This document shows, piece by piece, positions 1 to 62,330 of a stretch of DNA of 64,000 bases. The notes beneath the pieces are model-generated. The model saw only the letters and a list, made by a program, of their open reading frames with translations, ran no database searches and was not told the origin of the DNA. Origin of the DNA: a virus; the IMG/VR virus record IMGVR_UViG_3300031539_000002, one strand, 5' to 3'. A program made the position numbers and the translations under genes. Within the stretch, counting starts at the first letter, position 1; each line of letters opens with the position of its first letter.

Positions 1-131
1 GTGTCCAGGACCAATTCGAGATGAACGAACACATGGACTGGTCCACGCAAGTCGGACCCCATACGCAGCACGGTCGAGGGCCGTCTCCTCTGCGCGTGGC
101 CTCGGCTTGGATGGAGGCTCAAGACGCGTGA
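1..131 (+). CDS. 3' end of an upstream hypothetical (probable virion) protein, partial
   Basis: Open frame from base 3 reads ...GPSPLRVASAWMEAQDA* and ends in TGA 129-131, overlapping GTG 128 of the next gene. It carries the RVAxxW motif seen in other head-region proteins. Confidence 0.6.
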   Translation, partial: VQDQFEMNEHMDWSTQVGPHTQHGRGPSPLRVASAWMEAQDA

Positions 132-21318: not shown

Positions 21319-21540
21319 ATGCCGTCGATCAACCTCAGGAAGTACAACCGAGTCGCGCTCGAGGCAGAGCTCGCAGGGAAGTCCAACTACGAGGGGCCCC
21401 CTTGCAAGGCTTTTTCCAAGCATGTGGGCTCGGCTGGTACGACGACACGCGACACTGTGCGCCGCACTTGCAACCTCTGTGAGAGGCAGAAAGTGAAGGC
21501 GTGGCAGGAAAGACAGACAGAACGATGCACTTCGACGTAG
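21319..21540 (+). CDS. Small putative zinc-binding protein
   Basis: GPPC...H...CNLC pattern; AAGGGA upstream of ATG 21319. Confidence 0.5.
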   Translation: MPSINLRKYNRVALEAELAGKSNYEGPPCKAFSKHVGSAGTTTRDTVRRTCNLCERQKVKAWQERQTERCTST

Positions 21541-44772: not shown

Positions 44773-46758
44773 ATGCCAGCGGAAGGATCAGGTAAAGCAA
44801 TCGCCGGACCAGCGTCAACGACGGTTCGGACAAACGAGGGCGCACGCGTCGTGGCTGAGGTGCCGAACCATCGGACTCAGGTTCGCATTGGCAAGCCGTC
44901 CCGGGTGGTCGTTGGATCGATGCGCTCGCAAAACAAGTCGAGCTTCCGAGCAAGGGTGGCCGCTTCTTGCGGCCCCGGCAGCGGTGGCTTTGGCGGGACC
45001 GGTGGCGCATACGGCGGTGGCGGTGGCGGTGGTGGTGGCGGCGGGTTCGGAGGCAACGGGGGTGGTGGCGCAGTTGCCCAAGCATCCGCGGGCAACTTCT
45101 ATTCGCCCGAGCTGTCGACGGACTTCCTTGAGCTTCCGCAGTCTCTCAACGAGCAGTGGAACTACTACCGATTCTTCTACAACAACGAGCCGTTCGTCGG
45201 GCAGGCCCTTGACCTGCACACTGAGCTGCCGTTGTCGAAGGTCCGCCTTGCTCGCCCCAAGGCCAAAAGCAAGGCGCTTGCAGACCGGGCACTCCGTTTC
45301 TGCGAGAAGTGGGTCGAGGGCATCGGACTGCTGCAACGGCTGCTGGAGATCGTCCACGACTACTTCCTCATCGGGGAGGTCTACATCTTCTGCGAGGATG
45401 CCAACCCCGACATGCCTCGGGAGGTTCGGCAGAAGGTCGTCCGTCGCGTGGAGCACGACGGCACTCTCACAGAGCAGTGGATCGACCGCGAAGAGGCCGA
45501 TGACCTCGCTGTTGAATGGCTCAAGCAGAACTACAAGGGGCTCACGAACGTCCGCATCCTACCTCCTGAGCAGGTGCACATCCAGACGTTCCCGTTCACG
45601 GATGAAGTGATCATCGAGCTTATCCCTGACTCCAAGACGAAGCACGTCCTCGAGATGGCTGAGCAGGGGGACCGCAACGCACAACGCGTGGCAGATTCTA
45701 TGGACCCTGTGGTCATCGAGGCTCTTCGTCGCGGTGACAACATCCCGCTGTCCACGGACCCTGATGGGGGCTCGTTCGTCCACTACATGGCGAACAAGAA
45801 GTCGCAGTACGAGCCGCGCGGCCACAGCATCCTCCAGCGATGCCTCCGTACGCTCGTGTACTTCGACAAACTCCGTCAGGCGCAGACGAGTATCGCTTCG
45901 CGCCACATGACTCCTGTGCGTCTCGTCTACGCCGAGGACATGAGCGAGGCCGACACGGAGAACCTGCGCGACCAGATTGACCTCGCGCTCCAAGACCCCG
46001 ACTACTCGATCGTCACGAACTTCCAGGTCACCTGGGAGGAGATGAACTCAAACGGCCGTCTCCTTGAGCTCACGGGAGAGTACGACCTCATCAGCCGTCA
46101 GCTCTACGCGGGCCTTGGTGTGACTGAGACGTTGCTCAACGGTGAGTCGAGCTACTCGGGTGACCGCATCAACCTCGAGGTCATCAACACGCGCTACATG
46201 CTGCTTCGTGAAAACGTGCAGCGCCTCGTCGAGCAGTACTTCTTCAAGCCGATGTGTCGACGCATGGGCTTCGTGGAGGAGGACGAGGACGGCGAGATGG
46301 TGGTCATCTACCCGAAGCTGAGCTTCACCAGGCTCGCGCTCCGGGACAATCAGGACACCTTCGATGCCCTGTTCCAGCTCTACCAGAAGGGCAGCCTGGA
46401 CATCGAGACGATCCTCGACCTGCTCAACATCGACCCGGTCATGGTCAAGGAGCGCCTCGAGCGAGACTTCGCCACGTTCAACGATGCGCAGTTCAACGAA
46501 GTCCTTCGTTCGGTCTACGGCCGGTCGGGCGACCAACTCGCCGAGAACTCCAACATCGTCAACAAGATCGCGGAACAGCTCGGGCTCGAGTACAGCAAGC
46601 CCGAAGAGCCTGGCATGGGCCGATTCGCGTCCCTCAAGACCGCATCAGAGGGGGGTCTCCAAATTGGTGACGACATGGTTTCCAAGATCGCTGATGCAGT
46701 GGTCGAACGGCTCATGGGGACGCGGAAGGCGCCCGGAGAGCCCTCTGACGAGTCTTAG
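44773..46758 (+). CDS. Portal protein
   Basis: Downstream of TerL. YRFFY..EPFVGQALDLH..LPLS, YFLIGEVY and YEPRGHSILQRC are portal-like; Gly-rich N-terminal extension. Confidence 0.78.
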   Translation: MPAEGSGKAIAGPASTTVRTNEGARVVAEVPNHRTQVRIGKPSRVVVGSMRSQNKSSFRARVAASCGPGSGGFGGTGGAYGGGGGGGGGGGFGGNGGGGAVAQASAGNFYSPELSTDFLELPQSLNEQWNYYRFFYNNEPFVGQALDLHTELPLSKVRLARPKAKSKALADRALRFCEKWVEGIGLLQRLLEIVHDYFLIGEVYIFCEDANPDMPREVRQKVVRRVEHDGTLTEQWIDREEADDLAVEWLKQNYKGLTNVRILPPEQVHIQTFPFTDEVIIELIPDSKTKHVLEMAEQGDRNAQRVADSMDPVVIEALRRGDNIPLSTDPDGGSFVHYMANKKSQYEPRGHSILQRCLRTLVYFDKLRQAQTSIASRHMTPVRLVYAEDMSEADTENLRDQIDLALQDPDYSIVTNFQVTWEEMNSNGRLLELTGEYDLISRQLYAGLGVTETLLNGESSYSGDRINLEVINTRYMLLRENVQRLVEQYFFKPMCRRMGFVEEDEDGEMVVIYPKLSFTRLALRDNQDTFDALFQLYQKGSLDIETILDLLNIDPVMVKERLERDFATFNDAQFNEVLRSVYGRSGDQLAENSNIVNKIAEQLGLEYSKPEEPGMGRFASLKTASEGGLQIGDDMVSKIADAVVERLMGTRKAPGEPSDES

Positions 46759-46799: not shown

Positions 46800-48923
46800 G
46801 TGCCCCAGCCTGCGCCACAGAACTTCACGAAAATCGCTAACCGCGTCGTCCAGAGATGGATGCGGCGAAGTGTGCGTGTGGCCAAAGCGACGGGGACCAA
46901 GACCGGCCAAGGCGAATCGGTCGGGCTGTTCATCCCGCTCCCGAAGGACCTGGCCAAGCAGTTCCCAGACTTGGGGAAGAACGACTCTTCCCCCTCTCAT
47001 GTCACCTTCCTCTACATCGGGGATTTCAAGGACAAGGAGCAGCAAGAAAAACTCGTCGAGGTCCTCCGCGAGACGATGCGGAAGTGGTGGCCCGGAGCCA
47101 AGGCCACCCTCAATGGCCTTGAGTACTTCGACCACCACGACAAGGACCGTCGTGTCCCCCACGTCGCCGTCGATTTCGACAAGGACCTGAGCGGGTTCAA
47201 ACACCGCGTCAAGCAGGAACTCAGCGACGAAGGCATCGAGGTCGGTGACAAGTTCCCTGAGTTCAAGCCTCACGTCACCCTCTCGTACATGCCCGGCATG
47301 GACTCGGAGTGGGAAGGGGAGGTGCCCGAAGGGTCCTGGAACTTCGATGAGATGGAGGTCTGGGGGCTCCCCGAGCTCCACACCATCAAACTCGGACCCT
47401 CGGAGAAGAAGGTCGCCGCATCCTGGCTCCGAGGCAAGGTGGCCGGCTGGTGGGCCATCTCCCCCGGCAACCCAGGGATCAACCCGCCTCCCGTGGACAA
47501 GGGCGGCCTACTGAATGCACTCCCTGGCACAGACCCCGATAGCGCCCGCTACAACGGAGACGGGCCGGCTGACATCATGGGCAATGCGCTCGCTGCCGTG
47601 AACCAGGAGTATATTGACGCGTGGAAGCGTCCTGCGACTCCCGAGGAGATGCAGGCAGTCTTCGACTTCGTCTACGGAGGATTCGAGCGAGCACCCGAGC
47701 ACTACCTCCCCAAAGGCGATTCTGTCAGCCTCCGGGTAGCGGCTCGTTACATGCAGTCTTCCGTCCATCGCAAAAACATCTCCCTCATGAAGTGGCTCTC
47801 GCAACTGACCCGTCGATTGGGGGTTGGCCGGGACACGTACGTCGTGGGTGGTGCTGTGCGGAACTTTTTGATCGATCAGCCGATCAAGGACATCGACATT
47901 GTCATCGATACCACGAAGGCTGGCCGTGACTCTGACTGGCTCGCCAAGCAGATCGCTCGCAACATCCCAGCTCCCACGAACGTCACCACGAATCAATATG
48001 GCGTCGCCATCCTGACCGTGAAGGGGACGTGGATGATCGGAGGGGACGACCTCAACGGCGAAGTCCTTGAGATCGCCAACGCTCGCAAGGAAAGCTATGG
48101 GGGCCAGGGCGGCAAGGGCTACAAGCCTCACGCAGTCGCCCCTGCCACAATCGATGAGGACGTGCTTCGACGCGAGTTCACGTTCAACACGCTGCTATGG
48201 CGCATGATGGACTTGGCCCATGGTCCTGACAAAGCCGAGATCATCGACCTCACTGGCTGCGGTCGTCGTGACCTCGATCAGCGTGTGGTTCGTTGTCCGC
48301 AAGACCCCGACAAGGTGTTTTCGGATGACCCGACTCGGATGCTCCGGGCCATCAAGTTCACCGGCAAGTACGGCTTCAAGATTCCTCCCGATGTGGTGCG
48401 CTCCATCAAGCGCAACGTCTCCAAGCTCAAGCGCATGCCGTGGGAGGCTGTGGCGTCGATTCTCGTGAACGACGTGATGAGTCAGCCGACTGCTCGCAAG
48501 TCTCTCAAGCAGATGAAGGACCTTGGGTTGCTCGACACTGTGTCGGAGATGATCCAGGAGCAGAAGCCGTTCGCCACGTACATGAGCAACCAGCTCCGTC
48601 GCAACCGCAAGGTCCAGTTCTTGCTCGACCTCCTCGAGCTGGGCGTCCCCGCATCGACGCCGATCTCGTTTCTCGACCGCGCAGGCCAGCAGCGGTTGCG
48701 AGACCTGACTGTTTCGATGCCTGAGAAGGAGGCCGTCGCCTTCGTCGAGAATCTCATCAAGCCTCCTGTGGACAACAAGCGCATCATCGACGTGCTCAAG
48801 TTGGAGGGCCCCGATCGCCGTCACATCACCCCGACTGCTCGGCATCTGATCCTGCAAAATCCCGAGCTCGCGTCCAAGGGACAGCATCTCACTGACGCTG
48901 TCATCAAGGGATTGAGGAAGTGA
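46800..48923 (+). CDS. Fusion of a 2H phosphoesterase, a small unknown domain and a class II CCA-type tRNA nucleotidyltransferase
   Basis: HVTF (46998) and HVTL (47271) HxT pair; VVGGAVRN...KDIDI, EDVLRREFTFN, DDPTRMLRAIKF. Confidence 0.85.
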   Translation: MPQPAPQNFTKIANRVVQRWMRRSVRVAKATGTKTGQGESVGLFIPLPKDLAKQFPDLGKNDSSPSHVTFLYIGDFKDKEQQEKLVEVLRETMRKWWPGAKATLNGLEYFDHHDKDRRVPHVAVDFDKDLSGFKHRVKQELSDEGIEVGDKFPEFKPHVTLSYMPGMDSEWEGEVPEGSWNFDEMEVWGLPELHTIKLGPSEKKVAASWLRGKVAGWWAISPGNPGINPPPVDKGGLLNALPGTDPDSARYNGDGPADIMGNALAAVNQEYIDAWKRPATPEEMQAVFDFVYGGFERAPEHYLPKGDSVSLRVAARYMQSSVHRKNISLMKWLSQLTRRLGVGRDTYVVGGAVRNFLIDQPIKDIDIVIDTTKAGRDSDWLAKQIARNIPAPTNVTTNQYGVAILTVKGTWMIGGDDLNGEVLEIANARKESYGGQGGKGYKPHAVAPATIDEDVLRREFTFNTLLWRMMDLAHGPDKAEIIDLTGCGRRDLDQRVVRCPQDPDKVFSDDPTRMLRAIKFTGKYGFKIPPDVVRSIKRNVSKLKRMPWEAVASILVNDVMSQPTARKSLKQMKDLGLLDTVSEMIQEQKPFATYMSNQLRRNRKVQFLLDLLELGVPASTPISFLDRAGQQRLRDLTVSMPEKEAVAFVENLIKPPVDNKRIIDVLKLEGPDRRHITPTARHLILQNPELASKGQHLTDAVIKGLRK

Positions 48924-51900
48924 ACGCTCTCGTCGCACGCGTGGCTGCACGCCACATGGCTGCTCAGGATGATTTCTCCGTGGGCGACGAGGTGCTGTTT
49001 GGCAAGTACAAGAACAAGCGCGGCAAGATCGTGCGTCTGTTTGAGGATGAACGCGGCATCCCATCCGTCGAGATTGAGCCCATCCCCAAGGGTCGCAAAC
49101 AGAACCGTGTGATCGGCCTCTACAAGATCTGGAAGGGCGACCATCGCAAGCAGGCCGCGTACTCCAAGGAGTTTTTGGAGTTCGTTCAGGGACGCCGTTT
49201 CCAAAACCCCGACACCGGCAACCAAGTCTTGTTCCAGAGCCTTGAGGTTCCTGAGCAGGTCAAGATTTACCAGCAGTGGGGTGCCGCACAGAACGCCCAA
49301 GAAGAGAAGCCTGAGGGCCGAGAGCGCCACGAGCCCGGAAGGCTCCCGCCTGCGTGGAACCGTGACTCGGACATGGCACGTAAGGTAGAGAAACTCGCGG
49401 AAGAGTACGCGACGGAGTACGAGGATTTCTTTGACGGAATGCGACAAGTGTCCGTGGAGGACGAGCGCTATCGAGGGGCCGAATTCGCGGGCGAGGCGGT
49501 TATGCTCCGCGAGTGGGACCGTCACATCCCTGGGTACGTGCGGTTGCCCCCCTCTTCCACTTTGGAGGCTATGAGCGACGAAGATCGGCGCATCGCGCTG
49601 ACTTCATGGGACGCCGGTGTCAAGTTCATGGACGAGGTGCTTGGGGATGGTGAACGTCTTTCCCTTTTAGAGACCATGAAGCCTTCGGGAGAAGGAGGGT
49701 CGCTGGGGTCCCCCGGAGAAGGCTGGATCGACTCGACCCACAGCCCTGGAGCCCAACGTCTGCAAGGAGCTCTCCGAGAGTTGGGTATCGAGACACACCT
49801 GCCGTCTCGAGGCATCGAAGACCATGCAAAATGGCGTGACGAAGGGGCATCGAACGACCTACTCAAGAGTGCGTTGACGAAGGCGATGGCATGGCAACGC
49901 GCCTACTTCGCTGCGATGGGTGTTGAGGATGTGATGCTTTTCCGGGGAGCCAGTCTCGGTGACGAGGTGGCACGTCAACAGGAGCCCCACCCAACCGACA
50001 AACAGCAGAAATATCTTCCTCAAGGGATTCCGGTCACGTTGCAGAGTCGCCAGGAACTCTCGAGTTTCACGATGGACCCTTACGTTGCCTACAACTTCAC
50101 TCATCGAAATCGGAGTCCGGGAGAGAGTGACGAGAGCTACGAGAGTCGGGCGGGGAATTCCCTTCGCGGAGCAGTGGCGTACCGGGTTCCTGTTGACCGG
50201 ATTGTTTTGTCCCCAGCCGCAATCCCACAGCTCGGGCCTGCAACTCCGAAAATCAAGGAGGGCTACCGAGAGGTCGAGTTCATTGTGGGGGGCATTGGGG
50301 AACTTGAAGGGCGCACGCTGCCTTCACTGGATGCGGGATACGGAGCGGGCCGGTACGACCCCGAGAAGATGAAGCTCGCGACCAAGATCACCATCGAGAT
50401 GTCCGACGAAGACGAGGATGCGTGGCATAAGAGCGTGCGACGCGAGAACAAGGGCGACCGCCGCAAACAGGCCGCGTACTCCAAGGAGTTTTTGGACTCT
50501 GTGCAGGGGCAGCGGTTCCGCAACCCCGACACAGGCAACAAGGTCGTTTTCAAGTCGCTCTCCGAAGCAGAGCAACGGAAGATCCACGAGCGATGGGAGG
50601 CCCGTCATCGTAGCCAAGACGCGTCGGGGCCCACGGTGACAGAGCGCGGCCGTACCTTCGAGACAGGCAAGCCCGTTGCGTTTGAGTTCCTCCGCAACAC
50701 TGAGAAGGCTCCCAAGGCCCCTTCGGATTCGGACCCGTACCAGCAGAAGATCGAGCCCGCAGGGTTCTATGTGACCCACAAGGACACGGACGGGGACCCA
50801 CTCCCGGGCTACGACACGGGCACCATCAGTTTTCAGAACCCGCTCGTGCTCGCGGTCAACACCAACCCTGATGGCCCGATCTACGACGAGAACTCTTGGA
50901 AGGCGCAACTCGAGCGTCAGTACGGCAAGCGTGGAAAGGCCCTCACCAAGGCCCTCCAAGCTGACGGATACGACGGCATCGTGACCGTCACCCAAGTTCG
51001 TGGAAAGCCCTACACGTCCGAGATTGTTGTGCTCGACTCCGAAAAGTCTGTGCAGAAGGGCGACGACCGTAAGCGCAGGGCACAAGAGATCGCGGGCATG
51101 GGGTACGAGGCGGCGGCGCAGCTCGACAACGATGAACTTGATAGTGTGGCGTTTGGCGTGAAGCAGGGGGTCCAAGACCTTCGCATCGACCAGCTCAAGG
51201 TCAAGTACGACGCGGATCTTGAGCAGGCTGAGCATGCGGTGTCTCGAGAGCCCGACCGCTGGAAGGAACACCTTGATGAGCCTATTGAGGTCCGTTTCAA
51301 GGATGGGGAGTTCCACATCGAGGACGGCCACCATCGGTACGTGACGGCCCAGCGCATGGGCCGCGACAGCGTGAAGGTGGACCTGACTATCGATGACAAC
51401 CCTGTGAAGAAGATCTTTGAAATGGCCGGCAAGAAAATGGCTTCCTTCCATCGTGAAGCGTGCATCATCGCCGGCCGTCGGTTCGGAGACAGTCTGTGTC
51501 TCATCAAGAACCGCGACCGTGCCTACGACGCAGAGCTCGAGATCGTGCACCTGGAGAAGGACGGCACCGAGATGGCTGTCATCCTCGATACCGTGACCGG
51601 GTACATGGAGGGCGTCAACGAGCACGGGATCGCGGTCGTCAACACAACTCTGATGGTTGTGCGCGACGAAGCCGAGGGCAAGAAGAAGTCCCCCAACGGA
51701 GACAAGGGCAAGAAGCCCCTCACGTCCAAGGACGGCCCCAAGATCTACCGCGCCCTGGCGTGTGACAACATTGAGGATGCCCTTGAGTCCTTGCGCACGG
51801 ACGACAACGGTATTCGGGGCCATACCTTCGTGGCCGACGGCAACAAGTTGTTCTCCATTGAGTGCAGCAAGACGCACCCAGCTCGCGTAACGGAACTCGA

Positions 51901-54900
51901 CCCAGACCGCGTCAACACTCGAACGAACCACGGCGTCTCGTACCCCGATGCCGGGTACACGCACGGCGAGGACTACGTTAGTTCCGTCGTGCGTCGGTGG
52001 GAGGCACAGAAACGTCTGCAGGACATCAAGCGTCCTGAGGCGGCAGCCGTGGCCCTCATTGAGGCGATCGATGAGGCTGACAGCCCGTTCAATCCGGTCC
52101 GCACCACGGACAAGATGCGAACGACGAGCCAGCTTACCATCGACACGACCAACCCGAGGTTGCTGCTCTATCTGATCCCTGGCCACGCCAAGGTCGTCAA
52201 GCGTCGCAACACGCTGCCGGATGGGCGCAAGCCCAAGATCCCTGTCCGTGTCTTCAAATACCGCAACAAGATGGAAGACCGGAAGAAGCCGGTCAACAAA
52301 GACGCCGCCTTGATCGAACGCGTCGCAGCCCGATCATTGGACAAGCTCCCCGGTGGGTTGGCCGATGAGAAGAAGCCTGAGGATTTCGATCCCGAACAGA
52401 TCGCCAAGGGCACTAAGGTCGAGCTTGAGCATACGGATGACCGTGCAGTGGCCCGTGAAGTGGCGATGGATCATCTCACTGAGGACCCGAAGTACTACGA
52501 CAAGCTTGAGACCATCGAGAAGCACGGCGCCCGCTACAAGTCCAAGAAGAAGGTCAAGACCAAGGACGGCGACGAGATGACGGTCTACGAGTACAGCGAC
52601 CGTCAAATCGCTGATCGGAACCGGGGCAAAGCAGAACGCATCGAGAAACTGCGCAAGCAGATGAAGAAGCTCCAGACCAAGGTCCGCAAGGACGTGAACT
52701 CCAAGGACGAGAAGACTCGTGACCTCGCGCTGGCAGTCGGCTTGATGGACGAGACCTTTGAGCGTGTTGGCAACGACGGGAGCGCCAAGGAAGGCCACTT
52801 CGGCGTCACCACCTGGCGGGTGAAGCACATGACCTTCGGTAAGGGCGGCGTCACGATCACGTACGTCGGCAAGTCGGGGGTTGACCAGAAGAAGAAGGTC
52901 ACGAACCCGCGCATCGTTTCGGGTCTCAAGGACGCCTGCAAAGACAAGGAGCCCAACGCTTGCGTCCTGAGCGTCACGGCTTCCGAAGTCAACGAATACC
53001 TCAAGCCGCTCGACATCACCGCCAAGGACATCCGAGGGTTCCACGCGAACCAGAAGATGAAAGAGGAACTCCGAAAGGTCCGCAAGGGGAAGCTCCCCGA
53101 AGACCCCAAGGAGAAAGAGAAGAAGCTCAAGGACGAGTTCAAGAGTGCCCTCGAGGCCACTGCTGACGCGGTAGGCCACGAGGCATCAACCTTGCGCAGC
53201 CAATACCTCGTCCCAGGCCTGGAGGATGACTACATGAGAGACGGGACCGTCAATGAGAGTCACACCAAAAAGGGCTCTACCCTCCACACCGCGGCGTTGG
53301 ACGGAACCCCAACAGAGCGCCACATCCTTGCCCATGCCCAACTCGCTCCGGTCCTGGTAACCGCCAACCGACGTTGGTGGATTCAAAAAGCTCCGAACCT
53401 GTACCGAATCGCGCGTGAAGACGAGAGGCCGCGCCCCCATATCGAGGGTGTTCGTTTCCCGCCAGAGGTCTTCACAGTGCTCTGGTACGAGGACGACGAC
53501 GGCAATCGCTATGAGATGCCCGAGGATGGTCCCGAGCATCCCGAAGGCGCCAAGTACCAACTCAGCCAGTTCCCGAACTACCTGCACGACAGCATGTTGC
53601 AGCTCAACGAGGATGGCACCTCTACGGAGATCATGAGCGGTCAGCGAGGGTTCCCTGAGGACCTTGTGACCTCCATGGTGCGCAGCGGCGAGTGGGACGT
53701 GGGCGACGCCATCATGGTCGGCGGCACGAGCTGCGAGCGCTGCATGAACGTCTTGTGCAATCGCTACTTGGGCCCGGAGGAAGGCTACCCCTACGACTCG
53801 GAAGAGTATTGGCAGTGCGGGACCCGATGCGCCATGTGTGGGCACGTCGACAACACCAACGAGCGGGTGGTCCGACAGCCCCGCTATGCGTCTCCGAGCT
53901 ACGACAGTTACGTCCAGCGCAAGCGCAGAGAAGGCGGCCCTGTGCTGTCCCGTGATGAATGGGAAGCCAAGGTCATGGGCGTCGAAGATGACGCTGACGA
54001 GACCCCTGAGGCTACCCGTGAAGACTGGGAGGCCCGTCGCAATGCTCTCATGGAGGAGCACGGCCTCGACAAGTTCCATTCGTCGTACCGTCCTGACGAG
54101 AAGCACATGACGATTGACCTCATCTCCGTTCCCAAGGAGAACAAGGGTCAAGGCAGTGCTTCAAAGGCCATGAAAGAGACGCTGGCGTGGGCTGACTCCA
54201 ACGGCGTCACGGTCACGTTGTCGCCAACTTCTGAGTTCGGTGCCTCCAAGAAGCGCCTTGAGAAGTGGTATCGCAGCATGGGCTTCGTGCCGAACAAGGG
54301 GCGCAACAAAGACTTCCGGTTCACAGACGCGATGCTCCGCGAGCCGCAGGCCAAAACGGCCACGAAATCCGATGCGGAGAACGAAGATGAGGCGGTGGCG
54401 AAGATGCTCCGCAAGGAGCCCAAACTCAAGCCTCCGCGCTACGACCTTCGTGACAACCGTACTCTCGACGACGACGACCCTGAGGACGATCTTGGCGGTG
54501 GCGATGACGGCGACCGCGACATGTCCATGAAGTGGAACAAGGTGGCGAGCCGCGTGGCTTTCCGTTGGACAGCGATTGGGCCTCGAGTCCCACGACCTGA
54601 ACGCGTTGCTCGACTGTTCTTGGCGGAGGCGCCCCCAAAGGACAAAGCCCAGCCCAAGAGCGGTCCGAGCTTCGAGGAGTGGGTCAAGAACCAGAAATTC
54701 AAGCACCCTGAGACCAGCAACGATGTTGGGTTCTCATCGCTCCCCTCTGACGAGCAGGCCAAGATCCGCGAGAAGTGGAAGGGTCAGCAACAGCCTGAGG
54801 ATGAGAGCGGCAAGGACAAGGGGAAGGGTGATGAGGATGCGAAGCGCACCAAAGAAGACGTGCAGGTCGACCTCAATAACGCGCGCGACGAGATGCGGGA

Positions 54901-57900
54901 CCTAGAGTCCCAGATGGGCGACATCGAGAACGAGATCAAAGACCTCGAGGCCAAACTTAAAGGGTTCAAGCAGTACGAAAATCTCTCAGGCGATGCCAAG
55001 AAGCAGATAGACGAGCATGTTCGGGACACCCAACGTGCCATTGGCCGCAAGAAGGATGAACTTGAGGACAAGAAGGAAGAGTTCGACGAAGCGAAGGAGA
55101 AGGTCAAAGAGCTCAGGGCTGAGCGAAAGGACCCCGGCTTCGCTCAAGCCAAGCGCAAGGAGCAGGCTCGCAAGCAGCGAGCCGAACGGGTGAGCCGTGC
55201 TGTCCTCAAGGCGCAAGGAGACATGCAGAAACTCCTCGGTAACGAGGATACCCAGATCCCAGGGGTCCTTGCCAAGCAGATTGCCAAGGCACTCAACAAC
55301 CTCGATGAGTCTGAGGTGGAGTCCTTTTCGATTGATTTTCAGGACACGCTCCAAAAGTTGATGGGGATGGACTCGAGTTCGGATGAGGCACTTGAGTTGG
55401 CGTCTCAAGCCGCCAAGTTTGGTGACCTCCATGGCCTTACTGATCCGGGGGAGTTGGCCGTGCGAATGGCTCAGCTCAGCTATGCGCAGAACGTCGTCGC
55501 CAATCCGATGAACATCGGGGGAAAGCCGGTCGGCGTCACGGAGATGGACAGTGACAAGTACGCCGAACGTGCTCGCGCATCCTACGACCAGTTTCAGAAC
55601 CTGCCGTCCTCTTTGCGTACGCAGGCTGCGAGGCAAGTGACGGAGGCGCTCGAGGGTCTGGACCCTGAGACGCACCGCTCACAGGAACTCAATGCCATTT
55701 TGACGGGCATGAACCTTGCTCAGGTGGCGGCGACGGGGGACTCCCTCCCAGGGCGCCCTCAACCGAGCAAAGGGATGGCGTCAGTCATCCAAGCGATGGC
55801 TGAAAAGGGCGATGTTGATGCCCTCTTCACTACTTCGGAGGACTACTTTGCAGAGCAAGCTCGCGGGAAGATGGAGAAGAGTCTTGATGACATGACGCCA
55901 CTTGAGGTGGCTCAGTTGGCCACACAAGGGGATTCCAATCACGGCTACGCGGGGATGGTCAAATTGATTGAGGAGGAGTCTACGCCTGATGTCATGAGAG
56001 CCATGATGAAAGACTATCTTATCCAAGACATCCTCAACGATCAGTGGGGCGACCGAGCCATCCGCGACACGATGCAGGCTGCGGGTCTTGTGGATGCTGA
56101 TGACCCCGAGGTACGCGCAGGAGTGGTGGGTGAAGCTAACGAGCGCATGAAGCCTCGGATGGAGCAGATGCTTGAGGCGCGGGAGCGTATTGCTCAAGCC
56201 GAGAAAGAAGGCAAAAAACCGGATCCCGAAGACGAGGCCATTGTTGCAGGCGTCTTGGACAAGGAAAAGGGTACCGGTCTACGTGAGAAGGCGAAGGCTG
56301 TTCTCGATACGATCAAGGACAAGTTCAAGAAGGTCGTCATCTCCCCGGCGAGCGCGGTGCTCCAGCACTTCGTCAACACGGGTGACCGAAAAGTGCTCGA
56401 GCAAGAGACGCTGCCACATCCTGATGAGAAGGCCAAAGCACCTCGTCCCAAGGAAGAGCGTGATGAGGCTCGTGGAGGCGAGAGCACGGCACCGAAGTCG
56501 AAGCGCGAGCGCATGATCGAACGTGTGCGTCTCAAGGCTGAGAGGGTCAAGCTCAAGGCACAGCGCGACAAGGTGAAGGGCGACGAGAAGGGCAAGTACG
56601 ACGAGAAGATCAAGGACCTCGATGGGAAGATCGAGGGCCTGTCGAAAGAGCCTGAGAGCGACGAGTCCGAGAGCGAGCAGCCCAAATCCCGCGAGGATTA
56701 CCGAGCGAAGTTCGATGGCTCGACGTGGGGTGACGACGACGCGGGCACCGAGTACCACGTCGGGGATCTCATCCATAAGGCTGAGTCCAAGGAGGTCGAA
56801 GAGGTTCCGATCGCGGACATCGAGGAGAGCCTCAAGAATATCTCGGCAGACGAGCCGGTGGGTTCGCCCGAGTTCAAAGAGCGAGCTGACAAGGCCGACC
56901 TCAAGTATCCCGTCGTTCTCATGCGACAGGAAGACGGCTCCCTCGAGATCGTGGATGGCTCCCATCGAGCTTGGAAGGCACGCGAGACGAAGCAGCCGTT
57001 GAAGGCTCGGATTCTGGAGCCCGCCGATCTTGAAGATCTTGAGCAGGTCTCCGACGCTGATCGTGAAAAGTGGGACGAAAACGTCGAGTCTCAGGACGAC
57101 GAGGAGCACGGCCCCGGCGACGTTTGGGAGACCGAGCAGGGCAACTGGCGCGCCAAGAACCCGGACGGCGTCCCCAAATCATTCAAGGACAAGGACAAGG
57201 CTGAGATCTACGCCAAGGGCCCAGACGAGAAGGAGTCCGAGGGGAGCGCTGAGAAGCCCAAGGGAGCGCCCGACGAGGCTGAGGGGAAAGGCCAAGCCGA
57301 GAAGGACGAAACGGCTGAGGGAGCGTCTGAGGGAGCGTCTGAGGGCGCCTCTGAGAAGCCCAAACAGCAGCGCCGGGCCGTCAAGGACGAGCACTTCGAC
57401 CGCACGCAGGATGCTGTGGACTCCGTAGGAGCACCCATCCAGGAGAGCTTTACGAAGCTGGCGGACGACCCTGCTTTCCTCAAGATGAGCCCGCAAGAGC
57501 GATACACGCGTCTCGGAGAGACGCTCAAGGAGGCCATTCCTGGTGCTCGAGCGATCCAAGTGCCTGGGGCCGGTTCTAACGCTCCCATCAGCATCACGGT
57601 GCCCGAGGAACACCGAGCTCCCGGCGTGACCTCCCGGCAGAAGATTCGCTTGCAGCCCAACAGCACGGGTGGCGAGGCGTCGGGTAAGGGCGGCCATCTG
57701 GGGCTCGGTGTGAAGGACCTGCTTGAGGCCAAGACGCCCGAGGAGATCAAGAATGCGACTGCGCGGGTCATGGGCACGATGGTGCATGAGATGACCCACA
57801 TTTACGGGCATCATGGGACCAACCCCGATGAGTTTGACGATGAGGACAAGAAGGTGCGCCACATCCGATACATCTCGGACCCGGGGGAGATGCGGGCCCA

Positions 57901-58297
57901 CGCGAAGGAATTCGCGTGGCGTTACGCTCAGGACCACCCCGATGAGGGGGAGGTCGACATCGACAAATTAGAAGAGGCTCACAAGGGAGTGGGTAAGGAT
58001 TGGAAGATCCGGCAGTACTTCCAACAGCTCGGTGACAAGGAAGTCCAAGCCAAGTACGACCCTGAGGTCCAGAAGCTCATGCAGGACACGCATGAGGAGA
58101 TGGGCGACTTGGTGCAGCACTACGTCGACGAGTACCGGAAGCGCAATGGCCAACAGCGCAAGATGGGGAGCCGCGTGGCCCAAGCGTGGCTCGAGAAGGA
58201 ACGTCCCGTTCGCATGGCGAATGACTGGTTGGCACACGTCCGTTCGTTCCATCCAGACGACCCAAAACGTCCGATTGTCGTGCTCGACGCGGCTTGA
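48920..58297 (+). CDS. 3125-aa polyvalent protein: ART x2, ParB-like x2, Ntn hydrolase, DUF5661-like, topoisomerase IB, Cys-rich domain, GNAT, coiled coil, zincin
   Basis: FRG/SSFT/EVE; GFY..NPL..GYDG..EIVV; IEDGHHR and IVDGSHR; CII..KNRDR; ERVG/GKSG/KDIR/VGH/QYL; KGQG...WYRSMGF; HEMTH. Confidence 0.88.
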   Translation: MNALVARVAARHMAAQDDFSVGDEVLFGKYKNKRGKIVRLFEDERGIPSVEIEPIPKGRKQNRVIGLYKIWKGDHRKQAAYSKEFLEFVQGRRFQNPDTGNQVLFQSLEVPEQVKIYQQWGAAQNAQEEKPEGRERHEPGRLPPAWNRDSDMARKVEKLAEEYATEYEDFFDGMRQVSVEDERYRGAEFAGEAVMLREWDRHIPGYVRLPPSSTLEAMSDEDRRIALTSWDAGVKFMDEVLGDGERLSLLETMKPSGEGGSLGSPGEGWIDSTHSPGAQRLQGALRELGIETHLPSRGIEDHAKWRDEGASNDLLKSALTKAMAWQRAYFAAMGVEDVMLFRGASLGDEVARQQEPHPTDKQQKYLPQGIPVTLQSRQELSSFTMDPYVAYNFTHRNRSPGESDESYESRAGNSLRGAVAYRVPVDRIVLSPAAIPQLGPATPKIKEGYREVEFIVGGIGELEGRTLPSLDAGYGAGRYDPEKMKLATKITIEMSDEDEDAWHKSVRRENKGDRRKQAAYSKEFLDSVQGQRFRNPDTGNKVVFKSLSEAEQRKIHERWEARHRSQDASGPTVTERGRTFETGKPVAFEFLRNTEKAPKAPSDSDPYQQKIEPAGFYVTHKDTDGDPLPGYDTGTISFQNPLVLAVNTNPDGPIYDENSWKAQLERQYGKRGKALTKALQADGYDGIVTVTQVRGKPYTSEIVVLDSEKSVQKGDDRKRRAQEIAGMGYEAAAQLDNDELDSVAFGVKQGVQDLRIDQLKVKYDADLEQAEHAVSREPDRWKEHLDEPIEVRFKDGEFHIEDGHHRYVTAQRMGRDSVKVDLTIDDNPVKKIFEMAGKKMASFHREACIIAGRRFGDSLCLIKNRDRAYDAELEIVHLEKDGTEMAVILDTVTGYMEGVNEHGIAVVNTTLMVVRDEAEGKKKSPNGDKGKKPLTSKDGPKIYRALACDNIEDALESLRTDDNGIRGHTFVADGNKLFSIECSKTHPARVTELDPDRVNTRTNHGVSYPDAGYTHGEDYVSSVVRRWEAQKRLQDIKRPEAAAVALIEAIDEADSPFNPVRTTDKMRTTSQLTIDTTNPRLLLYLIPGHAKVVKRRNTLPDGRKPKIPVRVFKYRNKMEDRKKPVNKDAALIERVAARSLDKLPGGLADEKKPEDFDPEQIAKGTKVELEHTDDRAVAREVAMDHLTEDPKYYDKLETIEKHGARYKSKKKVKTKDGDEMTVYEYSDRQIADRNRGKAERIEKLRKQMKKLQTKVRKDVNSKDEKTRDLALAVGLMDETFERVGNDGSAKEGHFGVTTWRVKHMTFGKGGVTITYVGKSGVDQKKKVTNPRIVSGLKDACKDKEPNACVLSVTASEVNEYLKPLDITAKDIRGFHANQKMKEELRKVRKGKLPEDPKEKEKKLKDEFKSALEATADAVGHEASTLRSQYLVPGLEDDYMRDGTVNESHTKKGSTLHTAALDGTPTERHILAHAQLAPVLVTANRRWWIQKAPNLYRIAREDERPRPHIEGVRFPPEVFTVLWYEDDDGNRYEMPEDGPEHPEGAKYQLSQFPNYLHDSMLQLNEDGTSTEIMSGQRGFPEDLVTSMVRSGEWDVGDAIMVGGTSCERCMNVLCNRYLGPEEGYPYDSEEYWQCGTRCAMCGHVDNTNERVVRQPRYASPSYDSYVQRKRREGGPVLSRDEWEAKVMGVEDDADETPEATREDWEARRNALMEEHGLDKFHSSYRPDEKHMTIDLISVPKENKGQGSASKAMKETLAWADSNGVTVTLSPTSEFGASKKRLEKWYRSMGFVPNKGRNKDFRFTDAMLREPQAKTATKSDAENEDEAVAKMLRKEPKLKPPRYDLRDNRTLDDDDPEDDLGGGDDGDRDMSMKWNKVASRVAFRWTAIGPRVPRPERVARLFLAEAPPKDKAQPKSGPSFEEWVKNQKFKHPETSNDVGFSSLPSDEQAKIREKWKGQQQPEDESGKDKGKGDEDAKRTKEDVQVDLNNARDEMRDLESQMGDIENEIKDLEAKLKGFKQYENLSGDAKKQIDEHVRDTQRAIGRKKDELEDKKEEFDEAKEKVKELRAERKDPGFAQAKRKEQARKQRAERVSRAVLKAQGDMQKLLGNEDTQIPGVLAKQIAKALNNLDESEVESFSIDFQDTLQKLMGMDSSSDEALELASQAAKFGDLHGLTDPGELAVRMAQLSYAQNVVANPMNIGGKPVGVTEMDSDKYAERARASYDQFQNLPSSLRTQAARQVTEALEGLDPETHRSQELNAILTGMNLAQVAATGDSLPGRPQPSKGMASVIQAMAEKGDVDALFTTSEDYFAEQARGKMEKSLDDMTPLEVAQLATQGDSNHGYAGMVKLIEEESTPDVMRAMMKDYLIQDILNDQWGDRAIRDTMQAAGLVDADDPEVRAGVVGEANERMKPRMEQMLEARERIAQAEKEGKKPDPEDEAIVAGVLDKEKGTGLREKAKAVLDTIKDKFKKVVISPASAVLQHFVNTGDRKVLEQETLPHPDEKAKAPRPKEERDEARGGESTAPKSKRERMIERVRLKAERVKLKAQRDKVKGDEKGKYDEKIKDLDGKIEGLSKEPESDESESEQPKSREDYRAKFDGSTWGDDDAGTEYHVGDLIHKAESKEVEEVPIADIEESLKNISADEPVGSPEFKERADKADLKYPVVLMRQEDGSLEIVDGSHRAWKARETKQPLKARILEPADLEDLEQVSDADREKWDENVESQDDEEHGPGDVWETEQGNWRAKNPDGVPKSFKDKDKAEIYAKGPDEKESEGSAEKPKGAPDEAEGKGQAEKDETAEGASEGASEGASEKPKQQRRAVKDEHFDRTQDAVDSVGAPIQESFTKLADDPAFLKMSPQERYTRLGETLKEAIPGARAIQVPGAGSNAPISITVPEEHRAPGVTSRQKIRLQPNSTGGEASGKGGHLGLGVKDLLEAKTPEEIKNATARVMGTMVHEMTHIYGHHGTNPDEFDDEDKKVRHIRYISDPGEMRAHAKEFAWRYAQDHPDEGEVDIDKLEEAHKGVGKDWKIRQYFQQLGDKEVQAKYDPEVQKLMQDTHEEMGDLVQHYVDEYRKRNGQQRKMGSRVAQAWLEKERPVRMANDWLAHVRSFHPDDPKRPIVVLDAA

Positions 58298-58611: not shown

Positions 58612-59121
58612 ATGCCGGATCAGCTCACGAAACAAGGCGCCTTGCAGGTCTCGAGCGACCTCGACCGCCTCGCCACCCTCTTCCAATCTGAAACCGACAC
58701 TCTTGGGGTAACCGAGAAGATCGCCAAGGACTTCGCCCTTCGTTGCGACATCCTGGCCGATCATGTCGAGAAGAAGGCTGGAGTCGAGCGCGACGAGGAC
58801 GGCACCATCAAGGACCCCGACCTCAACAAGTACGCCTCTGCACTCTCCAAGCGGGCCCAGATGGACCCCACGAAGAACATCTCCATCGACCACGGCAGCG
58901 GTTTCAACCCCGCCGAGATCGGTGAGGAGCAGTCCAAGGCCCTTCTGCGCAATCAAGACGAGCCCTACATGGACGTCTTCAAGCAGGACGAGTTCGACCA
59001 GCTTCGTGAAGTTCAGCAGAACGGCATGTTCTCGAACGCGAAGTCGGCAGCCGCCGTCATCGCCAAAATGGCCAAGCTGCTCAGCGACAACAACATCAAG
59101 TTCCCTGTCGCCGTCGGCTAA
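58612..59121 (+). CDS. Hypothetical head-region protein
   Basis: 169 aa; AGGAG RBS. Confidence 0.72.
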   Translation: MPDQLTKQGALQVSSDLDRLATLFQSETDTLGVTEKIAKDFALRCDILADHVEKKAGVERDEDGTIKDPDLNKYASALSKRAQMDPTKNISIDHGSGFNPAEIGEEQSKALLRNQDEPYMDVFKQDEFDQLREVQQNGMFSNAKSAAAVIAKMAKLLSDNNIKFPVAVG

Positions 59122-59175: not shown

Positions 59176-60186
59176 ATGGGACGCCTCATGCCCAGTCTCT
59201 CCCTACAGCAGACCAGAACGTACATCGACAGGCTCGGTGATCTCGAAAACGAGCTCACCCGATCCTGTCGTGTCGCAGAGGTCATGTCCAAAGGCGCCGA
59301 CAAAGATCAGGCGGCCGCGGGCGGTCGTCTGAAAGACGCCTGCGACTCGGCGCGGGAGCACCTCAAGTACGTCGCGGAGGCGAAGACACGCCTGCTCGAG
59401 TTCGATGGGTTCCTGCATGCGCAAAGCCAGACCATCCGTGAGTCGCTCGATCGACCACACATGGTCTCGTTCATGAACGAGGTGGGCTCCAAACTGGGGC
59501 GCTCCATGGAAAGTCACGTCGAAGCCATCGTCAGCGGTGCCATCGACGCCCTTCGCAGAGTCGCCGGCTCCATCAAGGACATGCGCGATGCGAAGGCTGG
59601 TACCGAGGGCGACGCGTCCGCCAAGGGGAGTGCCAAAGCACTCGACAAGATCTGTGACGCTGCTGAGAAGGCCATTCGAGAAGGGGTCAAGGAGCGCAAA
59701 GCTGCTCCGGCACCTGCTCCTGAGGTCGAAGTTGAAGTCGAAGTCGAACTCGACGAGGAGACCGAAAAAATGGCAGCACATGGTTACAACCTGACAGCAG
59801 GCCTTCCTCCCGAGTTCTTGGAGAATATCCAGAAGAAAAAGGATGAAGCCAAGGGCAAGAAGGACGACGACAAAGAGGACGAGAAAGACGCGGGCAAGAA
59901 AGCCTACGTCCAAGTCCAATACCTGACGGCGGGCCTTCCTCCTGAGTTCCTGGAGAACATCCAGAAGAAAAAGGACGAAGCCAAGGGCAAGAAGGACGAC
60001 GACAAAGAGGACGAGAAAGACGCGGGCAAGAAAGCCCACGGCTACACCCTCACCGCCGACTCCTTGACCCCCGGCAATGAATCCAAAGGCCCCAAGGACG
60101 AGGGCGAAGAAGACGAGGGTTGGGTTCCGGGTCATCGCACCGATGGCAAGGACAAGAAGGCCCACGGCTACACGCTTACTGCGTAG
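59176..60186 (+). CDS. Hypothetical head-region protein with repeated C-terminal peptide units
   Basis: 336 aa; LTAGLPPEFLENIQKKKDEAKGKKDDDKEDEKDAGKKA twice and HGYxLTA three times. Confidence 0.72.
   Translation: MGRLMPSLSLQQTRTYIDRLGDLENELTRSCRVAEVMSKGADKDQAAAGGRLKDACDSAREHLKYVAEAKTRLLEFDGFLHAQSQTIRESLDRPHMVSFMNEVGSKLGRSMESHVEAIVSGAIDALRRVAGSIKDMRDAKAGTEGDASAKGSAKALDKICDAAEKAIREGVKERKAAPAPAPEVEVEVEVELDEETEKMAAHGYNLTAGLPPEFLENIQKKKDEAKGKKDDDKEDEKDAGKKAYVQVQYLTAGLPPEFLENIQKKKDEAKGKKDDDKEDEKDAGKKAHGYTLTADSLTPGNESKGPKDEGEEDEGWVPGHRTDGKDKKAHGYTLTA
59791..60036 (+). repeat. Direct repeat of 114 bp, period 132 bp
   Basis: Copies 59791-59904 and 59923-60036 encode identical peptides with a few synonymous changes. 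Confidence 0.9.
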
Positions 60187-60196
60187 GAGGATCTTG

Positions 60197-60820
60197 ATGG
60201 AGCGACGAGCAGACGAAGGTAACTGGCAAGCCCGTGGACAAGAGTTCCGCGTGGGTCAGACCGTGCAGCTCGTCAACGGGGGCGAGACGGATGTGGGGCG
60301 CGTCGTTGCGGTCTGGCCGGGCATCGGCATGTGTGACGTGCAGTTCCCACACACGAGCTACCGCTTCCCCGTCGAAGACCTCCAGATCATCAATCAAGGG
60401 GACGACCCCTTCATCGCTCCCATGCACGAGGACGTTCCGGGTGGCCCCGGCTCCGAAGGCGACGTGTCCGAAGGCGCTCCTGCCACCAACGTCATCGAGG
60501 GCGAAGTGCCCCGCATCGAACTCGTCCACGAGGTCGGCAAGACCGCCGAGGAAATGACGAGCCGCGTTGCTCAAGCTTTTGTGAAGAAGTCGCTCTACTG
60601 GCACGCCACCGATCGCAAATATCGGGTGAGCCGTGAAGAGCACGCGAACGGTCACTACAAGTGCCCGGCCAAGTCCTGCACAGGCCACCTGCGTCGCGCG
60701 AACTACAAGATGGAGGACGGCCGCATGGTCAAACTCCACGCCTGCCCCGAGTGCCTGTTCATGATCCGAGCTTCGGACATCATGGACGACCATTGCGCTT
60801 CGTCGAAGGGAGCTGCCTGA
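60197..60820 (+). CDS. Hypothetical protein: SH3-like N-domain and C-terminal zinc ribbon
   Basis: AGGAGG RBS; FRVGQTV...GRVVAVW; GKTAEEMTSRVAQAF linker; CPAKSC...CPEC. Confidence 0.7.
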   Translation: MERRADEGNWQARGQEFRVGQTVQLVNGGETDVGRVVAVWPGIGMCDVQFPHTSYRFPVEDLQIINQGDDPFIAPMHEDVPGGPGSEGDVSEGAPATNVIEGEVPRIELVHEVGKTAEEMTSRVAQAFVKKSLYWHATDRKYRVSREEHANGHYKCPAKSCTGHLRRANYKMEDGRMVKLHACPECLFMIRASDIMDDHCASSKGAA

Positions 60821-60821
60821 T

Positions 60822-62330
60822 ATGGCGTTCTCTAAGACCGCTCGAGCAGACGTGACGCAGCCTTCGTGGTCGATGGACCATTGGGGCAACTTCGTGCAGC
60901 AAGCGCGTGGGCGCGTTCGTACTGCTTCAGGTTCCCCGAACCTGGTGTCCCAGGCATCGGAGATCCTCCAAGAGAACTTCTCTCCCGAGAAGTACCTCCT
61001 GACGCACGCGACCATCGTGGCGTCGGTGGATACCGATGACGTGCAGAACGTCAAGCTCGGGAACATCAACGAGCTCGGTCGCAAGGTGAATCGCCGGTGG
61101 GCGAACTACCGCATCAAGCCGGGCTGCGACATCTACATCAACAACAACCACGACGCGTGGGACCGACCGGTGCTCCTCAAGAGCTACCGAACCTTCGTCG
61201 GCGCCCACAACTTCGTGGAGCACGTTCAGATCGAGGACCAGTCGAAGGGCCGCATCATCGATGCTGCTGCCCGCGACATCGGCGACTCGGTCTACGTGGA
61301 CATCCTCATCGCGACCAACCGCCGTCACTCGAGCCTGATTCGGGACATCGAAGCTGGCCGCATGAACACGATGAGCATGGGCTGCTCCGTCACGGAAACG
61401 ATCTGCACGAAGTGCGGGAACGTGGCCGCCGACGAGACGGAGATGTGCGAGCACGTCAAGTACGCCAAGGGGCAGTACGAGTACGACTCGTTGGGACGCA
61501 AGTACCGAGTGGCCGAACTCTGCGGCCATAGTGACATCGACCCCACAGGCGGCGTGACGTTCATCGAAGCGTCATGGGTCGCGGTCCCTGCTTTCCAGGG
61601 TGCCGTGATGCGCAACATCCTTGCGCCAGGCTCCATCAACTTGGATACGCGGAGTCAGATGCAGAAGGTGCTCTCAGAGCCCCCTTCGCAGTGGACTGCC
61701 GACGATGATCAAATGGCCAAGGCCGCTCGCACACTCGAAGTGACGTTCGATGAGAACTCCCTCGATGCTGTGCAGCTCGCCGAGCGCCGTCGCCTCCAGC
61801 GTATTGCTGAGATGCCCGCCATGCCTGAGATGCCCCCAATGGGTGCTCCGGGCGAAGGTGGCGCACCAGGCGGTGAAGAAGCTGACCCGATGAAGGATCT
61901 CGAGGACGAGATCGAGAAGTACGTCCTCGACAAGATCAAGAAGAAGATTCGGGACAAGATGGTTTCGGAGGAGGACGAGGACCAGGTTTCCGAAGAGGAA
62001 CTTGCCACGTCGTCCAACGAGAACATCAACCACCAAGCAGCCAAAGTCGCTGCACTGACGAACGGTACGAAGACCCTTCTTCGCATCGCTCGCTCTGACG
62101 TGGAGTTGCTCGACGGGATGGCCCGTCTCCAGCAAAGCCACGGCATCAAAGTTTCGAGAGAACTGTACAGGACCGCCCTCCGGGTCGGGTCTACCGACGG
62201 GCACCCCTCTCTCGAAAAGTACCTCGTGCAATGTGCCGAGGTGCTTGGTCACAACCCAAACACGGGAGAATCCAAGACCTTGGTGCGTCTTGGGCGAATC
62301 CTTTCAATGCGAAAGAAGACCCGGTTCTAG
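60822..62330 (+). CDS. Putative prohead (capsid maturation) protease with zinc-finger insertion
   Basis: NFVEH...GRIID, TMSMGC, CTKCGN..CEH and FIEASWVAVPA follow the HK97/assemblin-fold His...Ser...ExSxVxxPA pattern. Position between portal and scaffold. Confidence 0.7.
   Translation: MAFSKTARADVTQPSWSMDHWGNFVQQARGRVRTASGSPNLVSQASEILQENFSPEKYLLTHATIVASVDTDDVQNVKLGNINELGRKVNRRWANYRIKPGCDIYINNNHDAWDRPVLLKSYRTFVGAHNFVEHVQIEDQSKGRIIDAAARDIGDSVYVDILIATNRRHSSLIRDIEAGRMNTMSMGCSVTETICTKCGNVAADETEMCEHVKYAKGQYEYDSLGRKYRVAELCGHSDIDPTGGVTFIEASWVAVPAFQGAVMRNILAPGSINLDTRSQMQKVLSEPPSQWTADDDQMAKAARTLEVTFDENSLDAVQLAERRRLQRIAEMPAMPEMPPMGAPGEGGAPGGEEADPMKDLEDEIEKYVLDKIKKKIRDKMVSEEDEDQVSEEELATSSNENINHQAAKVAALTNGTKTLLRIARSDVELLDGMARLQQSHGIKVSRELYRTALRVGSTDGHPSLEKYLVQCAEVLGHNPNTGESKTLVRLGRILSMRKKTRF

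Follow-up and report, generated by a model that had tools for sequence, protein, structure and literature searches.

The giant reading frame and its family

We analysed a 64,000-nucleotide stretch of viral DNA (IMG/VR record IMGVR_UViG_3300031539_000002, hereafter the window) that carries, within a cluster of head-assembly genes, one protein stringing about ten enzyme modules around a type IB topoisomerase (Topo IB). According to the listing of open reading frames (ORFs) and the translation, this protein, named P0001, is encoded by a single uninterrupted frame of 3125 codons with a GTG start (Table 1). An earlier sequence-only reading had already described a single ORF of this length, and this holds, as the translation has no internal stop and the homologues P0005, P0019 and P0021 start at the first residue of P0001. 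The G+C content at the gene is about 60% and uniform across the ORF; with about 0.032 stops per codon, we estimate the chance of a stop-free run of 3125 codons at about 1e-44, so that at this composition the frame is not fortuitous. The GTG overlaps the upstream TGA (GTGA, 4 nt) and is preceded by GAGGAA. In a BLAST map, collinear homologues back all the junctions of the protein save the two that flank residues 131-510. The residue-level positions given previously were likewise exact (Cys848 at nt 51461, HEMTH at 57785, Topo IB pentad at 52760-53215). By contrast, the placement of the gene directly behind the portal has to be corrected, since a 707-aa ORF lies between the two.

Topo IB proteins of this kind form a family that is widespread and apparently undescribed. 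A word-indexed search retrieved 32 proteins of 1.7-3.0 kaa with Topo IB, and a scan of IMG/VR gave 126 confirmed matches; the 80 loci retained from these lie on contigs as long as 618 kb. Free-standing Topo IB ORFs in these loci can be as short as about 290 aa, while the longest fused one reaches 3122 aa, and P0001 is the largest family member found. Some 60 of the 80 loci share one gene order, which reads TerL, portal, (2H/nucleotidyltransferase), Topo IB protein, o58612, o60077, protease and o62233. Among 20 diverse members, the domains detected include PolyA_pol (8), DUF5661 (5), 2H (3), GGACT/AIG2 (3) and inteins (2), together with InPase, RNA ligase, Kinase-PolyVal, NUDIX, an M14-like peptidase and Pol-beta-type nucleotidyltransferases. 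Two family members carry intein splicing and LAGLIDADG domains within the giant protein. No description of the family was found in our literature search, in which journal coverage was partial.

Table 1. Features of the window, from the N- to the C-terminus of P0001 and then its neighbours
Feature	Residues	Nucleotides	Strand	Evidence or remark
Giant polyvalent ORF (P0001)		48920..58297	+	ORF listing
N-terminal leader (RVAARH) and SH3/KOW-like domain	1-75	48920..49144	+	Conservation, motif level
NP motif, copy 1	84-125	49169..49294	+	
ART1, candidate DRAT-like R-S-ExE ADP-ribosyltransferase	262-475	49703..50344	+	R342 (FRG), S381-S382 (SSF), E451/E453 (EVE), in this order
NP motif, copy 2	523-569	50486..50626	+	Modelled as helix, beta-hairpin, helix; predicted local distance difference test (pLDDT) 70-88
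Domain X, ART fold (modelled)	570-713	50627..51058	+	No Pfam model
ParB/sulfiredoxin-like domain 1 (ParB1)	714-840	51059..51439	+	DGHHR at 802-806
Ntn hydrolase, C45/AAT type	848-1130	51461..52309	+	Nucleophile Cys848
DUF5661	1159-1201	52394..52522	+	Pfam, 8.7e-10
Topoisomerase IB catalytic domain	1203-1455	52526..53284	+	Pfam Topoisom_I, 3.9e-24
Cys-rich alpha/beta domain	1456-1650	53285..53869	+	CERC at 1605, CAMC at 1637
Minimal GNAT acetyltransferase cassette	1699-1812	54014..54355	+	GQGSA acetyl-CoA motif at 1743
NP motif, copy 3	1915-1960	54662..54799	+	After KVASRVAFRW
Coiled coil and helical core	1966-2140 and 2141-2530	54815..56509	+	
ParB/sulfiredoxin-like domain 2 (ParB2), insertion cassette	2607-2705	56738..57034	+	DGSHR at 2679-2683
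GPGDVWxTEQGNWRAKN motif module	2727-2775	57098..57244	+	Invariant in alignment
Zincin-like candidate, insertion cassette	2830-3076	57407..58147	+	HEMTH at 2956-2960
C-terminal tag (SRVAQAWL ... WLAHVRSFHPDDPKRPIVVLDAA)		58148..58294	+	
RlaP homologue		21501-22679		RNA repair pathway, Pol-beta family
TerL		42089-43993		Upstream part of head module
Portal		44773-46758		PHROG portal, 1.2e-30
2H phosphoesterase and PolyA_pol/CCA-type nucleotidyltransferase ORF	707 aa long	46800..48923	+	Pfam 2_5_RNA_ligase2 1e-6, PolyA_pol 6.8e-15
o58612	169 aa long	58612-59121		Small acidic helical protein; directly 3' of the giant gene in 47/80 loci
o60077		60077-60820		Kept in 61/80 related loci; SRVAQAF (RVA junction motif, as in P0001) and C-terminal Cys4 ribbon-like CPAKSC ... 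CPEC
Head-maturation-protease-like ORF		60822-62330		2.5 kb downstream of P0001

Conserved chassis and inserted cassettes

The BLAST map of the family separates P0001 into a conserved chassis (residues 1-80, 840-1650, 1810-2520, 2720-2780 and 3091-3125) and variable inserts (residues 130-840 and the GNAT, ParB2 and zincin-like segments). The sequence-only reading had raised the idea that domains are swapped as cassettes at linker motifs, and such swapping is indeed seen when homologous loci are compared. The GNAT, ParB2 and zincin-like segments are clean insertions in alignments with relatives (for the GNAT, with P0017 and P0012 for example), and domain X is placed before the Ntn domain in P0002, whereas in P0009 it follows DUF5661 and precedes Topo IB. 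The DRAT-like ART, domain X, the two ParB/sulfiredoxin-like domains, the mini-GNAT and the zincin-like module are probably all cassettes inserted at short portable linker motifs.

Two such motifs were recognised. The first, called NP (F/W x N/H P x T G/N N x V x F x S L P ... E Q ... W), has three copies in P0001, each ahead of cassettes, and in relatives it accompanies X or ParB. It was also observed at 1928 and 3889 of the window, in ORFs 2-3565 and 3562-6003, two large ORFs without a Pfam match, which may be further cargo proteins with the NP linker. The second motif, RVA(A/F)R(W/Y/H)L, sits at module junctions; R[VI]A was counted 142 times in 33 family proteins, about three times the 45 +/- 7 expected, and stands at the start of 16 of the 33, these counts coming from related, non-independent sequences. 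At residues 555-575 of P0009, an internal 'M..MAQRVAARRL' contains a full N-terminus, Met included, of the same form as a P0019-type start; from its sequence it looks like the scar of a recent gene fusion.

The chassis opens with a short domain that 19 of the 34 long homologues share and 35 of the 80 loci retain; in an alignment, G28, K31, N32, G35, D43, G46, P48, P54, P56, G58 and R59 are invariant. The SH3-like fold proposed for it previously stays at motif level, the match to Pfam KOW (0.008, 16.4 bits) falling under the cutoff of 22.3.

The Ntn hydrolase is borne out by Pfam AAT (PF03417; residues 890-1048, 1.5e-5, 25.2 bits for a cutoff of 23.2) and by NCBIfam C45_proenzyme (NF040521, 'C45 family autoproteolytic acyltransferase/hydrolase'; 3.7e-12). 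As the NF040521 score of 46.3 is short of the cutoff of 85 although PF03417 was passed, membership is given at the level of the Ntn/C45 superfamily. All 21 sequences aligned have Cys848, and the Ala in front of it is almost invariant; KxRDRxY and several Asn and Arg positions are also invariant, and in 5 of the 21 homologues translation starts 5-7 residues ahead of this Cys. The Ntn profile had no match among PDB sequences.

DUF5661 and Topo IB, both named beforehand, were recovered by Pfam (Table 1). Topo IB scores 85.7 bits against PF01028 (residues 1232-1424, cutoff 23.7) and matches PDB 6z01 (4.4e-8) as well as 2f4q. Its pentad, R1282, K1318, R1372, H1420 and Y1429, is invariant in 21 family sequences; these are the positions which we take to be catalytic from the motifs ERVGN, VGKSG, KDIRG, VGH and SQYL. 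The Cys-rich domain that follows is kept in about 20 homologues and gave a model mostly at pLDDT 65-93, falling below 55 at model residues 80-110; it was submitted to fold searches jointly with the GNAT, and the lists returned were filled by GNAT matches. Further on, the coiled coil matches NCBIfam SMC_prok_B and coiled-coil Pfam families, the helical core recurs in about 29 of the 34 homologues and at 24 of the 80 loci, and the C-terminal tag contains HPDDPxRP, invariant in 17 sequences.

The cassettes differ widely in how far they have relatives. The R-S-ExE ART announced by the sequence-only reading (ART1) has a sole homologue, L043:18233-20044 (BLASTP 7e-14, 28% identity), which keeps FRG, SSF[TS]M and ExE and whose segment 19550-20044 passes Pfam DRAT (2.3e-7, 30.7 bits, cutoff 25). 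The ART1 of P0001 itself had no match in Pfam or among PDB sequences; protein-atlas features gave DRAT at 0.89. Since the homologue passes DRAT, the motifs are kept and the atlas lead agrees, we accept ART1 as a putative DRAT-like R-S-E ART, the assignment being transitive through the homologue. The AlphaFold2 (AF2) model of this part was below pLDDT 50, with no usable alignment behind it. Residues 131-510 found no homologue among proteins of 209-665 aa and residues 131-470 none in any topoisomerase-family member; single-protein scans of viral contigs with the helical core and with ART1 found no relatives, and a two-sequence ART1 profile matched only the contig of L043.

Domain X is far more common. 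With residues 131-845 as query, 573 cluster representatives were found at E<=1e-10; of the 150 that were listed, nearly every one maps to X, which occurs either as free proteins of about 150 aa or as modules inside giant phage proteins. In P0072 a copy is joined to a Phage_portal domain. Neither residues 560-712 of P0001 nor four free-standing homologues matched Pfam, including ART-PolyVal (PF18760). The model is at pLDDT of about 96. VIA comparison lists matches that nearly all have the ART fold, with SAIP (Z 5.3), NatT (5.2) and diphtheria toxin (4.6-4.8), along with PARPs, tankyrases and ParT, and BFVD returns phage ART-PolyVal-like proteins with probability 0.95. The sequence profile had no match in PDB, and Foldseek against PDB gave none at E<=0.001. 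An ART fold for the modelled X is thus supported by VIA matches that are all at Z of 5.3 or below but consistent, plus BFVD, in line with the second ART-like domain foreseen here. Its alignment conserves a Tyr and an Asp and shows no conserved His, against the H-Y-D active site of ART-PolyVal. A resemblance to the cyanophage A4 pre-ejectosome chain 9k3a_B was set aside, Z of 4.5 being too weak and the corresponding paper mentioning no ART.

The two ParB-like domains that had been predicted were both retained. The ParB1 profile matches sulfiredoxin and SbnI (1.4e-4 each), followed by Noc, ParB and a serine kinase. ParB2 matches PHROG 17560 (4.7e-15) and, by hhalign, the ParB1 profile at 78% (1.8e-5, over just 32 columns around DGxHR). 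ParB1 had no tblastn match in phages; ParB2 is missing from most homologues and has small homologues in EL- and phiKZ-like jumbo phages. A BLASTP comparison of both with the ddrB-ParB domain found in P0034 was uninformative.

The GNAT named beforehand is supported by its fold. AF2 gave a good model on a 24-sequence alignment, for which VIA-align places AcrVA5 (6iuf_B) first (Z 11.0, root mean square deviation 2.6, 94/95 residues) with a runner-up at 8.5; the remaining 49 rows listed are almost all GNAT acetyltransferases. Foldseek gives probability 1.0 to GCN5/AtaT, ESM Atlas concurs on the fold, and all 41 PDB matches of the sequence profile are GNATs, 6iuf among them. Pfam scores fall short of the cutoffs. 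The cassette is homologous to the GNAT that adjoins ART-PolyVal in P0035.

Finally, the zincin-like cassette is common only to P0005, where HEMTH is kept. The HEMTH motif read earlier is thus present, and the zincin call stays at motif level: Pfam BSP peptidase matches weakly (0.072) and at the motif only, and there was no PDB match and no phage tblastn match. Two short homologues of the C-terminal region were found, neither spanning the zincin. The cassette is about 90% identical to P0005 by eye, against 47% for the whole 1972-3125 BLAST segment, a contrast which suggests either recent cassette transfer or strong constraint.

A predicted packaged polyvalent protein

We propose, with a probability of roughly 0.62, that P0001 is a polyvalent cargo protein loaded into the capsid of a huge tailed phage and made of a conserved chassis with inserted cassettes. 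Polyvalent proteins of phages and conjugative elements were defined by Iyer, Burroughs, Anand, de Souza and Aravind in 2017 (PMC5512222), who predicted that those adjoining virion genes in phages are packaged, as is known for P1 DdrB, N4 virion RNA polymerase (vRNAP) and T4 Alt. The sequence-only reading had assigned P0001 to this class, and we agree on the grounds of several unrelated effectors in one polypeptide (Ntn, Topo IB, GNAT, two ParB-like and two ART-type domains), of a phage with a portal-terminase system whose gene lies beside virion genes (TerL, portal, protease), and of a shared repertoire: GNAT, ART, ParB and 2H are common to the P0001 unit and the class, and relatives add InPase, Kinase-PolyVal and Pol-beta-type nucleotidyltransferases, likewise treated in that paper. 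Proteins of the class and of the P0001 family are both predicted to be processed and delivered along with the DNA. Unlike the class as described, the P0001 family is centred on Topo IB and the Ntn hydrolase and has its own linkers, NP and RVAxR[WYH]L; PMC5512222 has the word 'topoisomerase' in the title of a reference and nowhere else, and lacks 'NTN' altogether. The novelty claimed earlier therefore applies to the domain combination, while the class itself, a polyvalent protein in a head module, was already known.

The proposed course of events is as follows. P0001 would be made late, together with the coupled 2H/nucleotidyltransferase ORF. In 8 of 20 relatives PolyA_pol and Topo IB lie in one ORF, and because of such fusions we assign the 707-aa ORF to the same cargo unit, of which it is probably a part split here by the 4-nt overlap. 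P0001 would enter the prohead via its conserved terminal modules; the fusion of X to a portal domain in P0072 provides a link to virion proteins. Ntn hydrolases are active only once their nucleophile is N-terminal. An active Ntn domain would therefore imply cleavage at Ala847|Cys848, giving an 847-aa piece (SH3, ART1, X, ParB1) and a 2278-aa piece, and self-cleavage is suggested by the five homologues that start 5-7 residues before the Cys and by the 'autoproteolytic' name of the NCBIfam family. Further cuts may be made at the RVAxR[WYH]L junctions by the prohead protease encoded downstream. The cargo would then leave with the DNA into the host, where DNA would be the substrate of Topo IB and of the ParB domains, and host proteins would be modified by the ARTs and by the GNAT, with defence proteins as likely targets.

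Several points weigh against this proposal. The presence of P0001 and its relatives in virions is deduced from genes, for which a position in the head module is suggestive, and the cleavages at Cys848 and at the RVA motifs are sequence-based predictions. A Pfam scan of P0001 detected neither MuF nor MPTase-PolyVal, which are typical of the described phage polyvalent proteins, and cultured phages of INPHARED hold no close homologue. The capsid would have to accommodate a protein of about 350 kDa. The zincin and SH3/KOW calls remain at motif level, the active site of X is a putative one with no conserved His in the alignment, and the R[VI]A enrichment suffers from the relatedness of the sequences counted.

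Packaging being predicted from genes, P0001 might instead be a late cytoplasmic multi-enzyme for DNA topology, RNA repair and host modification, which shares an operon with head genes without being cargo. The window does contain other genes of nucleic acid metabolism, namely those for ribonucleotide reductase (RNR), RecD2, RecA, a clamp-loader subunit and RlaP, and the distant Topo IB of phage PaBG sits among DNA-metabolism genes. We nevertheless consider this unlikely, given that portal (or TerL) precedes and the protease follows the Topo IB gene in some 60 of the 80 diverse loci, that X is fused to the portal in P0072, that the invariant terminal tags are conserved and non-enzymatic in look, and that the architecture fits the class predicted to be packaged (PMC5512222). 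A second explanation would make P0001 mainly structural, its coiled coil and helical core forming an internal head body or scaffold (phiKZ inner body or ejectosome-like) with the enzymes as dispensable passengers. Conservation is widest in the coiled coil, the terminal tags and the helical core, while enzyme cassettes vary, and X has the weak VIA match to 9k3a_B; yet every member has a Topo IB whose pentad is intact, and the Ntn residues do not vary either, which argues for selection on catalysis and makes a mainly structural role quite improbable. That P0001 is an assembly chimera or an error-joined set of neighbouring genes, at least around residues 131-510, whose flanking junctions are unsupported because residues 131-470 lack a homologue in family members, is very hard to reconcile with the uniform G+C content, the two NP copies flanking the insert in frame, the collinear homologues at the remaining junctions and the place of the insert's sole homologue (L043), encoded between homologues of o60077 and the protease in the head module of another huge phage.

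The packaged cargo proposed here has counterparts in several known systems. P1 DarB/DdrB, N4 vRNAP and T4 Alt resemble P0001 in being large or enzymatic; they are packaged in the head and injected so as to protect the DNA or start the infection (PMC5512222), which is experimentally proven for them and predicted for P0001. DdrB, which is processed, contains a ParB domain, and Alt is an R-S-E ART (PMC5512222). Their domain sets differ from that of P0001, and there is no sequence homology except in the GNAT, which matches proteins of phages Skulduggery and Parlo annotated as 'DarB-like antirestriction'. AcrVA5 is an anti-CRISPR GNAT that acetylates Cas12a (PDB 6iuf; PMC9114340). The P0001 GNAT is similarly minimal (about 95-110 aa) and has AcrVA5 as its best structural match, clear of the next; it differs in showing 19% identity and a weak 6iuf profile match (E 0.9) and in being built into a giant protein, whereas AcrVA5 is a free Acr. 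ART1 resembles DraT in that its homologue passes Pfam DRAT and that the R, S-x-S-like and ExE positions occur in both, whereas its link to DraT is transitive and the context and likely target differ. As for Topo IB, the enzyme of poxviruses has a role in early transcription. The vaccinia enzyme is also a compact type IB topoisomerase with an R-K-R-H-Y pentad and is particle-borne (virion proteomics, PMC1540416), as the phage version presumably is; the former, about 314 aa long, stands free and belongs to a eukaryotic virus, the latter is a module of a 3125-aa protein, predicted to be packaged, in a tailed phage. In jumbo phages, Iyer et al. (2021) noted a tyrosine-recombinase-type topoisomerase I in a few genomes, under replication functions. 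In the literature searched, again with partial journal coverage, we found no account of tailed phages packaging a type IB topoisomerase.

If P0001 is packaged, a topoisomerase, DNA-acting ParB domains and protein-modifying enzymes would arrive at the moment of DNA entry as a ready kit for counter-defence and take-over. The cassettes with their portable linkers form a natural catalogue of candidate anti-defence enzymes (AcrVA5-like GNAT, DRAT-like ART, domain X), and the linkers may be usable as a capsid-addressing signal. A more general picture, which we offer tentatively and regard as less probable than its opposite, is that huge phages load a modular enzyme kit built on a Topo IB chassis, with cassettes (ARTs, an AcrVA5-like acetyltransferase, ParB nucleases and RNA-repair enzymes) swapped at the NP and RVAxR[WYH]L peptides, cut into its separate enzymes by the Ntn domain and the prohead protease and injected with the DNA, as a phage counterpart of poxvirus core enzymes with a new capsid-addressing code.

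Neighbouring genes and other observations

All the genes of the window lie on the same strand, and no tRNA genes were found in it. Megablast of the window against INPHARED gave no near-identical phage DNA, and PADLOC defence models had no match. The RlaP homologue and the 2H/CCA-type ORF point to an RNA-repair theme in this phage. On the 3' side of P0001, the product of o58612 could conceivably be a scaffold or a partner. The 314-nt intergenic stretch that follows the P0001 stop is headed by a perfect 14-bp inverted repeat (58310-58323/58343-58356; CTTCCTTAGAAACC ... GGTTTCTAAGGAAG), which begins 13 nt past the stop and encloses a loop of 19 nt.

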